Shown here one piece after another: positions 3,660 through 28,011 of a DNA stretch of 64,000 nt. Numbering within the stretch: position 1 is the stretch's first letter; every line of letters starts with the position of its first letter. Source of the DNA: Octopus vulgaris (lineage: Eukaryota); the NCBI GenBank assembly GCA_951406725.2, contig OX597832.1, positions 36,084,001-36,148,000 of the forward strand, written 5' to 3'. A model generated the notes under the pieces. That model made no database searches, was not told the origin of the DNA, and worked only from the letters and a program-made list of their open reading frames with translations. The position numbers were made by a program, and so were the translations under genes.

Positions 3660-3755
3660 AATGTGTGTGAGTGTGTGTATGCGTGTGTATACGCAAACAC
3701 ATACGTATAAATCCATATATATTTATATGTGTGTATGTGTACGTTTATATGTATG

Positions 3756-3811
<56 letters not shown>

Positions 3812-3911
3812 TACATACATATATACATATATATATGTATGTACAGATATGTATGTATGTATGTATGTATATATATATATATGTGTGTATATATATATAC
3901 ATATATATGTA

Positions 3912-3943
<32 letters not shown>

Positions 3944-4000
3944 CGTATATGTATGTGTGTATGTGTGTGTGTGTGCATGTGTGTGTGTGCATGTGTGTGT

Positions 4001-4045
<45 letters not shown>

Positions 4046-4095
4046 TGTGTGTGTATGTGTGTGTGTGTGTATGTGTGTGTGTGTATGTGTGTGTA
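3660..4095. repeat. compound (TA)n/(TG)n microsatellite
   Basis: Seen directly; explains the overlapping YIYI/VCVC ORFs. Confidence 0.95.
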
Positions 4096-4514
4096 CGCCC
4101 ACATCCAATTATTCAAGCATACATATGTACAACACACATATGCAAAAAATTTTCAAAATTATATAAAACACATTAGAAAAGCGTCGAAATAGGAAATTTT
4201 ATGAAAACGAAATAAATATCGGAGATTCGAAATCACGAAAACGAAAAACAACAATAAATAAATAAATGAACAAAAAGTAAAACATAAATGAAAAAAACCC
4301 CAAAAACACGGTGAATCCAATAATATAAAATATAGCGAAATGAAAAGACTAAAAGAATTGCATTCGATTTCAAAATCTTGAAGAGCAGTTAATTCTAATA
4401 CTGAGCGTGATATAAGCCTTGGCAGAACGAAAATACAAAACTATTTGAAAAGCCATTGGAAATTCTATACACACGCTTCGCAAAACAGTTTTAGGCATAA
4501 GTTATATATAGATT

Positions 4515-4744: not shown

Positions 4745-4839
4745 TTGCGTGTGTGTGTGTGTGTGTGTGCGTGTGTGTATGTGAGTGTGTGTGTGTGTAC
4801 GTATTTGTGTATTATGTACATATATGTATATATATATAC

Positions 4840-4933
<94 letters not shown>

Positions 4934-5105
4934 GTATATATATGTGTGTGTATATATACATATATACATATATATACATACACATACAAATTATATGTTT
5001 ATATACATATATACATAAATATATATATATATATATATACAAACACACATACATATACGCACACATATATATACATATACATACACACACACACAAAAGG
5101 AGACA

Positions 5106-5185
<80 letters not shown>
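4745..5185. repeat. compound (TG)/(TA)/(CA)/(GA) microsatellite
   Basis: Seen directly. Confidence 0.95.
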
Positions 5186-24604: not shown

Positions 24605-25934
24605 TAATATTTGTAAATACATGCTGTTGATGAGTCAAGCAATGATTGCAAAGTCTATCATGATCGACCATTTCTTTGAATAGAGTAATAAACCCATTAT
24701 TTTTACCAGTTAATGCAGGAGCACCATCAGTTGTAATCCAATCAATTTTATTTTTGTCAACATTGAACTTTTCTAATAATAAATTAACATACTCAATTAT
24801 GTCCGGTTGTTGTACCCTTCATATGACACACGTCCAACATTTCTTCAATGATGTTAAAATTGACATCAATTCCGCTGATGAAAACAACCAATTGTGCAGC
24901 GTCACTTTCATCAGTATCTTCGTCCAGTGCTAAACTGTAATGGACATATTTAGATAACTGAGTCTGCAATGTACCCACAATGCTGTCAGCTAAGTCACCA
25001 ATTCTTCTACCAATTGTGTGATGCTAACAGATTTGTTTCATTGAATAAGTTCACTTTCCCGGAACAATATTCATTAAAAGCAATTTCAATACATTCTTTT
25101 ATTAATTCGCCATCTATCAGTGGCTTTTTTGTACATATACCAGTTTTCCCAACATGTTTTTAAATTGTTTTGTCGTGAACTAAGCTTCTTCAATTCATCT
25201 ATTTTCATTTTCCTTCTAACTTGGCAGCATAGTGACGCTTAATACTATATTCCTTGCATACAGCAATTTTATCATTACATATGAGGCAGATAATATTATT
25301 GCATTCTTCAATTACGAAATATTTTTTCTGTCCATAGGCTATTGAATTTTCTCTTTTCTTCTGTTATTTTTCTCTTCTTAGTGCCAGATGCCATGACTAA
25401 ACAATAGGCTATTAACAATTAACAATTAAAATTGTTACGTGATCTTGCTGATATTAATGTTCCAGAAATCAGAAACAAATGAAGAATGAATAGGCTCTTC
25501 CGCATAAAGCGTTAGCATTGGGCTTAGCGTTGACTAGAAACAGTGAAGCACCACCGAAGTCACTAACACTTGACATTGTAAACAAGGTTAGACAAAAACA
25601 TTATCAATATTGATCCAACATCAAAAAATTTGAAACTGAAACAATGGCTGTTGATTATGCATCAACAAAATGGCTGACTCTACGACGTAGAGTCTGCCAT
25701 TCTACGTCATAAACCCCGTGACCTCCCTTGTTTTACCTCCCTCTATTCAGGTTTTCATTGGTCCGTTCAAAATAGCACACTCCGAGAATAATTTTCTCAT
25801 CATACATTATCTAAGTAAATGAAAATAAAACTAGAAAATAACACATAGAATTAGAATTTGAATCGCTAGCGGGCCGCATGAAAATATTAAATGGGCCGTA
25901 ATGCGGCCCGTAGGCCGCGGGTTGCACATCCCTG
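24605..25934 (-). mobile_element. hAT Buster/SPIN-like (GTF2IRD2/EPM2AIP1-type) transposon, 5' half, pseudogenised
   Basis: TIR CAGGGATGTGCAACCCGCGGCC ends at 25934. From the ATG at 25394: MASGTKKRKITEEKRKFNSLWTEKYF..CLICNDKIAVCKEYSIKRHY; YSLALDEDTDESDAAQL; TTDGAPALTGKNNG; HCLTHQQH. Confidence 0.92.
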
Positions 25935-26252
25935 GCCTAGAGTATGCCGTGTGATCAACACAACGTGCGCTTTGGACCAGCTCCTCGGCGCTAAATACTC
26001 GTAGGAGTGGTCTTCTCTGTGTGCACGATCTGAATATTTCACAGGATCTACTTCAGTACCCAGTATATTTATTCGACTAAAGGTTGTGATTACAGGTTAA
26101 TTCAATCCAACCTGGTGCATATCATTTAAGTACCCGATTCTTTCCAGAATCCTTAATATTATACACACACAATTAATGTAAACACCAGGCTGCAATATTT
26201 CACCAAAAAGGAGACTTATAATTGTCACTAAATGTGACTAGGGTGTTAGGAA

Positions 26253-26521
26253 ACACCCACATTGCTAGAAATAAGAGCTAAAATGCTCTAAATCTGTATT
26301 TAGCGTCATGAATGAAAACACAGACTAACGGGGAAATAACCGAACACCAAGATGGCTTAACTGATGATGGCAACGGAAATTTCCGAAACTGATGTGTCCG
26401 TCTTAAGAATTCTCGGTCGGTATTTTTCGGACAATTATGCTCCCTGTCTGTGTGTATGTTTTCATTCATGTGCGTTAACAACAGCGTTAGAGGACTTTAG
26501 CTCTTGCTTCTAGCAATGTAA

Positions 26522-26525
<4 letters not shown>
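26253..26525. repeat. ~270-bp imperfect inverted repeat (foldback) enclosing a hammerhead
   Basis: 26259-26282 versus 26496-26519 is complementary at 22/24 positions; 26307-26320 versus 26457-26470 at 14/14. Pairing continues inward to hammerhead stem I. Confidence 0.9.
26356..26407 (+). ncRNA. type I hammerhead ribozyme (predicted)
   Basis: Stem I CTTAA/TTAAG; core CTGATGA (26361-67) plus one extra T; stem II GG..CC; GAAA (26385-88); stem III AC.GA-TGTG-TC.GT; GTC cleavage triplet at 26400-02. Confidence 0.75.
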
Positions 26526-26565
<40 letters not shown>

Positions 26566-26566
<1 letters not shown>

Positions 26567-26705
26567 CATGTGACCAAGCGACCGACAAGGCCATCAGATG
26601 TTGTTACTCATCGCTGGTCACAATGCGCTTGTGGCTCATTTTAACCTTCAAATGACGTCACCCCGTTGGCTAGTCGAGCAGGCCAACATTCCCCGCTGAT
26701 CGAAA
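26566..26705 (-). mobile_element. probable retroposon 3' end fragment
   Basis: GC-rich block; minus strand reads GTTGGCCTGCTCG..GCGCATTGTGACCAGCGATG..AACATCTGATGGCC and abuts a (TA)n run. Assigned from recall only. Confidence 0.4.
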
Positions 26706-28011
26706 GAGATACTTGGAGCAAGTATATATATTGTACTGTTTATATAAATTCGACTATATTCATTATTACATTATCTACAGGTGTATCACAATAATACAAT
26801 GCCACACTGTCTACAGGTGTAGTACTATATACGTTACCACAATATAAATGTACTACTATACACACTACTATATGCTATAGATGTGTTACTATATACATTG
26901 CAGTACTATCTATATATGCACCACTCTGTATATGACCATTCTGCGGATTTAACACTATATAAATTACTACAAGGCAAATGGAAAAAGTGTAAAAAAAAAG
27001 GCATGTACTGTGATCTTGCCCAGGGCAAGTCGATCGAAAGAATAAAGAAATTATAAAACACTCGCTAATTACATGGAACACTTAATTCTTACTGTGGGGA
27101 ATTTGTAATATTTGTTATTTCTCTTGGCTTCTGTTGGCAGACAAAGTGAATGAAGTATTATATACCACTAGGATTCGATCCGCTAGCCCTAATACTGCTA
27201 ACACCAAACTCGGCCAACTACGTCAGGTAATACTTTATGTCGATAACTAAGAAATATTTTATGAGATCCAACCAATGTTCTACTCATTTTCTGAAGACAG
27301 GTCATGGCTGAAACCTTAGAATTCAATTATCAACTAACAATATCGAATTTTATAAACTTTACTGAACAGTTTTTGCCGAGGCAGACCAACACCAGTTTCC
27401 TTGCATTTTAGCATTTAACTTTATAGTATATATCTCACTGATAAAGGTTGGCTACATGTTATATTCAATATCAATGGTACAGAGATATGACATTCGTCGT
27501 AAATAATTGGATACATAGCTTGTAGATAGGAAATCTAAATTTCATATTTTCTCTCATCTTTATGGCTTCTTTATTATGTACAGGTTTTATTACATACTTT
27601 GGTGATATAAAAGTTCACAAGGTTACTGATAACAAACCACACATATACAAGGTTTCATATTCTTTCTTACAGAAATGTCGCCACTTGAAAGGAAGATTTT
27701 ACCTGATTTACAAAGTTTGTTGCAATAACAGTCTTAATTAGATTTAACAAATCATACGAAGACATATATATATAACTATTATCTTGTATGACAAGAAGTA
27801 CAACCCTGACAAGTTTCCATGCAGCTTTAATTCACTGCTGATGCTAGTTTACTTTACTTAATCCGTAAATACCCGCTGAAGAAGGCATGACCGTTACAAC
27901 ATCTCTATTCCTTAAGAATATCATGTGTACTACAACAATCAAAGAGACCTTGCCATAAAATATGGGAGTTGTGTTGCCGATGTAAATAATTTATATTATT
28001 TTGTCACATCA

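Follow-up and report, generated by a model that had tools for sequence, protein, structure and literature searches.

A decayed hammerhead retrozyme copy in the Octopus vulgaris genome, with an inverted partial duplicate probably made by a Penelope-like enzyme

Hammerhead viroids and HDV-like circular RNAs combine a rod-like fold with a hammerhead ribozyme. In Metazoa, hammerhead-bearing non-LTR retrozymes have been described by Cervera and de la Pena (2020, PMC7229834), with repeats of 350–390 bp in mussel. A preprint (Li, Clavereau and Pollet 2026, 10.64898/2026.07.22.740005) regards animal retrozymes as non-autonomous sequences belonging to Penelope-like elements (PLEs), the argument resting on co-occurrence and on pLTR homology as found among vertebrates, in three insects and in a coral; the species list in its main text is without a mollusc. 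In PLE insertions a 5'-truncated copy lies alongside in inverted orientation, only one end bears a tail, and the targets are (TA)n (PMC8557442, PMC3846280). The PLE protein of the anole, for which a dimer is predicted, was found in vitro to nick and extend both target strands and to use uncleaved RNA, reverse transcription beginning at two internal sites that set the tail (PMC11167929). Among cephalopods, Penelope is reported as abundant in coleoids, in a source in which the word ribozyme does not occur (PMC8967140), and 235 hammerhead loci were counted in the giant squid genome (PMC6962438). No description of a cephalopod family such as the one presented below was found in the open-access literature, a scope outside which Repbase and Dfam lie.

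The locus is situated in a window of 64,000 nucleotides of Octopus vulgaris DNA (contig OX597832.1, positions 36,084,001 to 36,148,000), to which all positions refer unless another locus is named. It contains a type I hammerhead motif on the + strand (26356..26407) with predicted cleavage after C26402. The core bases listed in the initial annotation, CTGATGA (26361–26367), GAAA (26385–26388) and GTC (26400–26402), are present on that strand and agree with the type I core CUGANGA, GAAA and NUH, and the state of the stems given there was likewise confirmed. Stem I (26356–26360 with 26403–26407) encloses the core and is fully paired (5/5), while stem II (26369–26373 with 26380–26384), following CUGAUGA, and stem III (26388–26392 with 26397–26401), starting from GAAA, have one mismatch each, C26371/U26382 and U26390/C26399, respectively, the changes at 26382 and 26399 being private to this copy. 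The three stems, with II and III closed and I open, are found at the level of the family, the window copy being mismatched in II and III. In the family, a frame of about 28 codons starts at an ATG within the hammerhead core (26364–26445, + strand, in the window); the open reading frame of the anole PLE likewise begins at stem II, and the family frame is broken by indels of 1 or 2 nt between subfamilies.

A hammerhead descriptor of our own matched once in the whole window, on the + strand only, and four times in 30 crude shuffles; on its own, without the family, the motif exceeds chance only modestly. The Rfam comparison suggested at the outset yielded no hammerhead match for the locus at E values up to 10, nor did it for an intact copy of the same family (L132). 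Among 11 loci scanned no hammerhead reached the gathering score, two copies of the sister family described below matching beneath it (Hammerhead_3, 26.5 bits versus 48.5; HH9, 22.6 versus 52); a match at gathering score is a test against a library and stands outside the structural definition of a type I hammerhead. Rfam matches to miRNA and snoRNA models were dismissed as weak or as arising from (TA)n tracts. Since shuffled sequences also give motifs and the locus is without an Rfam match, it is on the strength of the family that the ribozyme motif is accepted as real.

Searching the genome (2.8 Gb, 227 contigs) with the locus resulted in 1853 first-look candidates, and three further family queries resulted in 1879, 1802 and 1833, numbers (about 1,800–1,900) that are not to be equated with copy numbers. 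Forty matches were scored per query, the best ones being 72–86% identical to the locus and the best full-query matches over all four queries 72–87% identical. The summed contig depth over 26233–26273 amounted to ~2,600 times (run X4) and ~1,700 times (run X5) that of a flank contig, which is again not a copy number. A solitary rod-shaped unit, one of the two models offered initially, is therefore not what the genome contains, a permuted monomer of 355 nt being present at very many places. The 355-nt period was obtained from the self-match of a natural copy (L007), and at many loci the sequence upstream of the ribozyme re-enters the unit's own 3' end. No non-repetitive open reading frame was found over the family copies, an LTR layout was absent from every map of family loci, and tblastn of the genome's PLE proteins against the window gave no match, so that the RT plus GIY-YIG frame of an autonomous PLE was not detected there. 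As for the proposed survey of copy number and arrays, it revealed very many dispersed copies and no long tandem array among the scored matches. Same-strand chains longer than 400 nt numbered 20, the longest of 626 nt containing two ribozymes; no chain of two full monomers occurred among the best 40 of 1833 candidates. Chains at four loci (L003, L043, L170, L172) cover two cleavage sites each, which indicates a template that was uncleaved or circular, and the lack of any chain beyond 626 nt speaks faintly against copying by a rolling circle. In two presumed-RNA contig sets short family pieces only were found, and contigs of this kind cannot show RNA ends or strand.

With a monomer of 355 nt, a GC content of 36% and no open reading frame, the unit lies within the range of non-LTR retrozymes (monomer ~170–400 nt, GC below 45%, no ORF). 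It shares with those described in PMC7229834 the canonical type I hammerhead, the length of ~355 nt and the low GC content, as well as the lack of an ORF, the abundance on a scale of thousands and the head-to-tail continuity of units. Unlike them, the octopus family is dispersed and consists of partial monomers, with no long array among the scored matches, and most of its sampled insertions are head-to-head, whereas the word 'inverted' does not occur in the main text of PMC7229834. It is also old and decayed by comparison, and circular RNA is putative here. Because tandem arrangement is only partly seen, continuity reaching about 1.8 units and copies otherwise being partial monomers among the scored matches, the family is filed as a dispersed variant of non-LTR retrozymes with putative cleavage and circles.

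A related copy located beside a PLE fragment led to a second family, with 1122 first-look candidates, that has its layout and 3' end in common with the first. Sister-family loci (L101–L130, e.g. L102:1470–1830, minus strand) show the same 3' region and end point and different, covarying stems. In a hand-picked sample of well-preserved segments (18 of 53 from family 1 and 16 of 31 from family 2), 92% of the cells were paired, compared with 21–37% in slid controls, and a double change was seen in 10 of 14 pairs. Six stem pairs differ cleanly between the two families, and the covariation thus represents few independent events and not 92. Between the two families the core is kept while the stems covary. 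The original assignment to the type I hammerheads of the retrozyme and Penelope-like world was right. A fixed core with swapped stems is the trace that selection on the hammerhead in the source elements would be expected to leave.

Superposition of the locus on natural copies demonstrated that the insertion is larger than first described. In place of the start claimed at 26253, it extends ~90 nt further to the left, to an end placed only within 26160–26171. The whole insertion (26160..26525, without strand) consists of two head-to-head partial copies of the 355-nt hammerhead retroelement unit, numbered here with C3 as 0 and with cleavage after +41. The inverted segment (26160..26334, − strand) corresponds to unit ~+79 to +243/248, aligns with L001 1472–1635 at 84% and bears the common 'long' 3' end of the family. 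The direct segment with the ribozyme (26332..26525, + strand) corresponds to unit ~−29 to +162, aligns with L001 1633–1827 at 86% and terminates at a 'short' 3' end. Both alignments overlap by 3 nt at the junction (26332..26334, without strand), where the native extended stem has its base. The two small hairpins noticed earlier do exist, hairpin B at 26224..26238 and hairpin A at 26241..26258, both on the − strand; rather than lying merely upstream, they belong to the inverted arm and to the 3' part of the unit. Hairpin B is fully paired (5/5) in 47 of 61 family-1 and 10 of 11 family-2 segments, counts which the search pattern itself favours, and hairpin A is shorter in the sister family, where its loop, as judged by eye, is often UUCG. 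A (TA)n tract (26526..26564, without strand), likely a target or end-derived tract, adjoins the right end of the insertion and masks any target-site duplication, which is thus unreadable. One 129-nt contig of run X5 spans the left end (26112–26240) with zero differences; this run is perhaps the assembly's own source, and the contig is therefore not independent support.

The minimum-energy fold of 26253–26525 comprises 102 pairs and has a z-score of −10.5, none of 100 shuffles being as stable. Its 14/14 paired block (26307–26320 with 26457–26470) was confirmed, as was the 22/24 block, which is composed of blocks of 12 and 10. The inner pairing of 26334–26360 with 26403–26432 is the family's native extended stem I. 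In the predicted folds of five natural monomers a long imperfect stem encloses the ribozyme, and branched hairpins are formed elsewhere (z −1.2 to −4.5), the stem spanning about −64 to +103 in L006, L007 and L059; the inner part of the rod is thus native. The rod is made up of the native stem around the ribozyme plus a copy, in inverted orientation, of the 3' part of the unit, and in its full form it is peculiar to the window insertion and a few similar ones. The initial alternative to the solitary unit, a cleavage product copied back in inverted orientation, holds insofar as one of the arms arose at insertion by inverted copying; it does not start at the cleavage site, the copied arm beginning at unit +79 with the junction ~38 nt beyond that site.

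The state of decay bears on whether this locus might yield a functional rod-shaped self-cleaving RNA, either viroid-like or co-opted, a reading for which the very stable fold speaks, along with the core bases, all retained at the locus as they are in 27 of 53 family-1 segments. These 53 ribozyme-spanning segments come from 44 loci, and the core together with all stems is kept in 6 of them. The stem-breaking bases (T in stem II, C in stem III) were each found in 1 of 53, in both cases the window copy, and since they are private to it this copy is likely dead. The predicted probability of stem II is 0.00 in the window copy compared with 0.6–1.0 in three better-preserved copies; stem III is predicted poorly in the latter too (0–0.22), and folding hence separates the copies on stem II only. 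Efficient cleavage has probably been lost in the window copy. Relative to the majority letter of each column, divergence has a median of 9.1% at non-CpG and 15.8% at CpG sites (99 segments, reference included), and the two window segments, with 9.2 and 9.9% at non-CpG sites, are typical of the family; moreover, the arms are mutually identical at only 78% over 85 nt. With a single ribozyme in one polarity, a unit-length circle cannot be cut from the locus. Hammerhead viroids and HDV-like RNAs resemble it in the rod of ~270 nt and the hammerhead, whereas ribozymes in both polarities, as in a viroid-like unit-length circle, were not found (one motif, + strand), the rod is genomic and locus-specific, and native monomers are formed of a stem and branched hairpins. 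One polarity and a locus-specific rod argue that this is not a viroid-like unit, and a functional RNA is regarded as very improbable. The locus is an ordinary decayed copy, and probably a fossil in the genome instead of a viroid-like RNA. In a search for young copies, exact matches to a 33-nt core stretch numbered only 2 genome-wide. Post-insertion selection on the core, suggested by mismatches of 6.5% and 4.9% in the core versus 7.8–10.1% elsewhere, was not accepted, since BLAST seeds and subfamily differences bias these rates.

Several other repeats accompany the insertion. Right after the (TA)n tract, 26565–26720 is a very abundant short repeat, probably a SINE, with a summed depth of up to ~1 million in run X4, and it also adjoins other family copies, e.g. 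L009 and L028. A moderately repeated element occupies 25700–25937, its right end presumably being a terminus of hAT-type MITE character, next to a 33-nt near-palindrome at 25669–25701. Degenerate direct repeats with spacings of 36 and 64–66 nt are seen at 26768–26980.

The anatomy of insertions was compared at 69 distinct loci, 23 duplicate loci having been dropped and L163–L182 left uncounted; these are top-scoring matches of the family queries and not a random sample. An inverted, 5'-truncated copy on the 5' side, as in PLE cargo, is present at the 41 loci that are head-to-head, while none is tail-to-tail and 28 are without adjacent inversion. At 24 of the 41, one end lies at +232–270 and the other at +150–215 (long and short); the other 17 break this rule. 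The long and short ends differ by ~45–85 nt, longer than the 30–40 nt PLE tail of the published descriptions. Segment starts in the 41 insertions are scattered from −144 to +203, and only 2 of 82 lie 6 nt or less from the cleavage site, the chance expectation being ~3 (82 × 13/355). A microsatellite adjoins 35 of the 51 long and 31 of the 46 short ends, versus 15% of random places, and is found at 10 of 33 5' ends; microsatellite or AT-rich targets are likewise a mark of PLE cargo. Flanks shared between loci were rejected as part of the unit, several different abundant repeats being found beyond (TA)n. Long inverted arms, which in L002 give a near-complete palindrome, would also suit a MITE or fold-back DNA transposon with the arms as terminal repeats. 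The junction points nevertheless differ between loci, the 28 loci mentioned lack inversion altogether, truncation affects the 5' side of copies that have one 3' end in common, and the unit shows circular permutation, all of which makes such an origin barely credible.

The Neptune and Penelope/Poseidon PLEs (PMC8557442, PMC3846280, PMC11167929) share with the octopus family the inverted 5'-truncated copy, microsatellite targets and a hammerhead near the end, and putatively also the one-sided tail and an internal start of reverse transcription. The family differs from endonuclease-bearing PLEs by having no ORF, a canonical rather than a minimal hammerhead and a longer end difference, and it is without nucleotide similarity to the sampled Neptune-like families. 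As with the retrozymes of Li et al. (10.64898/2026.07.22.740005), dependence on PLEs is proposed, monomers and dimers are seen and PLEs co-occur in the genome; pLTR homology was not found in the sampled PLE loci, the link to PLEs coming here from insertion anatomy.

The genome contains RT plus GIY-YIG elements with an open 781-aa frame, whose ends run into (TA)n and whose CxxxxCxxC linker fits the description of Neptune or Nematis in PMC8557442; they are obvious candidates for the helper. One Neptune-like PLE (L092:406–4087) has the 781-aa RT-CxxxxCxxC-GIY-YIG frame, an upstream frame of 359 aa and 385-nt pseudo-LTRs (1–385 and 4788–5172) that are 99% identical; its family is young, with many near-identical copies, and was possibly active recently. 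In a second Neptune-like family (L100), a 766-nt inverted copy (1321–2086 and 3718–4483) is 100% identical and hence marks a very recent head-to-head insertion. A minimal U3-A8 hammerhead lies downstream in 17 of 30 GIY-YIG loci (L067 and 16 others), with a palindromic stem III and 450–1110 nt past the match; minimal variants of this kind have already been described (PMC4209133).

The PLE sample comprised 69 loci and regions, out of 6136 and 10592 candidates. No autonomous partner sharing the unit was found in the GIY-YIG loci, ten regions, 3'-UTR scans or the older Neptune-like family. The family profile had zero matches in 29 older Neptune-like loci and matched 40 GIY-YIG loci and regions at one place only, a sister-family copy that a (TA)n tract sets apart from the element. 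RT fragments in decay, from another type of PLE, occur at L024:3–608, L028:2119–3185 and L147:121–393, with microsatellites between them and the family copies; we take them to be Naiad-like. These fragments, and the Neptune-like ones near L003 and L110, were rejected as partners because they are parted by (TA)n or lie on the opposite strand. The copies might alternatively be mere pseudo-LTR fragments of an unsampled autonomous PLE and not a self-contained retrozyme unit, considering that their insertion marks are PLE marks and that truncated PLEs commonly give solo and opposite-strand hammerheads (PMC4209133). That is unlikely given the 355-nt period and the return of the sequence before the ribozyme to the unit's own 3' end at many loci; no copy continues into an RT or GIY-YIG frame, the few nearby fragments being cut off by (TA)n, and the family stems are of canonical length, unlike the minimal U3-A8 hammerheads of the genome's Neptune-like elements.

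With good confidence, then, the locus is taken as a copy, ~9% decayed, of a 355-nt repeat that is dispersed and non-coding, its rod being the native stem plus an inverted partial duplicate that likely arose through a PLE enzyme acting in trans. The behaviour of the anole PLE and the insertion marks together lead us to infer twin priming, in which two cDNAs are joined head to head. The ancestral ribozyme would have cut multimers into monomers, possibly circles, and a PLE reverse transcriptase/endonuclease would have inserted the hammerhead unit in trans. On balance, and with restrained confidence, the PLE protein would have nicked both strands of (TA)n and primed two cDNAs within uncleaved multimeric or circular RNA. 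One cDNA would start at ~+243–249 and the other at +160–200, beside the two conserved hairpins; at the window locus they would have ended at +79 and −29 and been joined via a short complementary patch. The same family could have acquired the inversion differently at the insertion step, by fold-back of a single cDNA that primed itself at the native stem's base. Indeed, the native RNA pairs with itself at the junction (−29 with +79), junctions are alike in L003 and L012, and self-priming has been put forward for inverted PLE junctions (PMC3846280). The similar loci, however, all came from the query holding the window junction, the only one to retrieve symmetric junctions of this sort, and by our own reading such a symmetric pair is absent from all 20 head-to-head loci whose first retrieval came from another query. 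Fold-back moreover predicts equal outer ends, whereas those of 24 of 41 loci differ regularly, and this variant is rather doubtful. Within the twin-priming reading, a bolder proposal may be ventured tentatively, namely that both sister families consist of minimal circular-RNA parasites living on Neptune-type Penelope elements, and that thousands of their insertions record twin target-primed insertion in vivo, with a dimeric enzyme, two fixed internal starts flanking a conserved two-hairpin signal and head-to-head joining.

As a fossil, the single locus matters little, and the family is more useful. The enzyme that moves animal retrozymes has so far been argued from co-occurrence and pLTR similarity, while here the insertions themselves carry PLE marks, i.e. 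head-to-head inversion, two internal end classes and microsatellite targets, and two families have the 3' hairpin region in common with covaried ribozyme stems. The question of the helper and the origin of PLE inverted repeats thereby become testable on thousands of natural events. The family is new as a dispersed variant of retrozymes, and its insertions are informative on how retrozymes move. If the proposal of parasites of Neptune-type elements were true, the families would provide a natural cis signal of ~100 nt by which any RNA could be loaded onto a PLE enzyme, and proof, at the level of insertions, for the movement of animal retrozymes.
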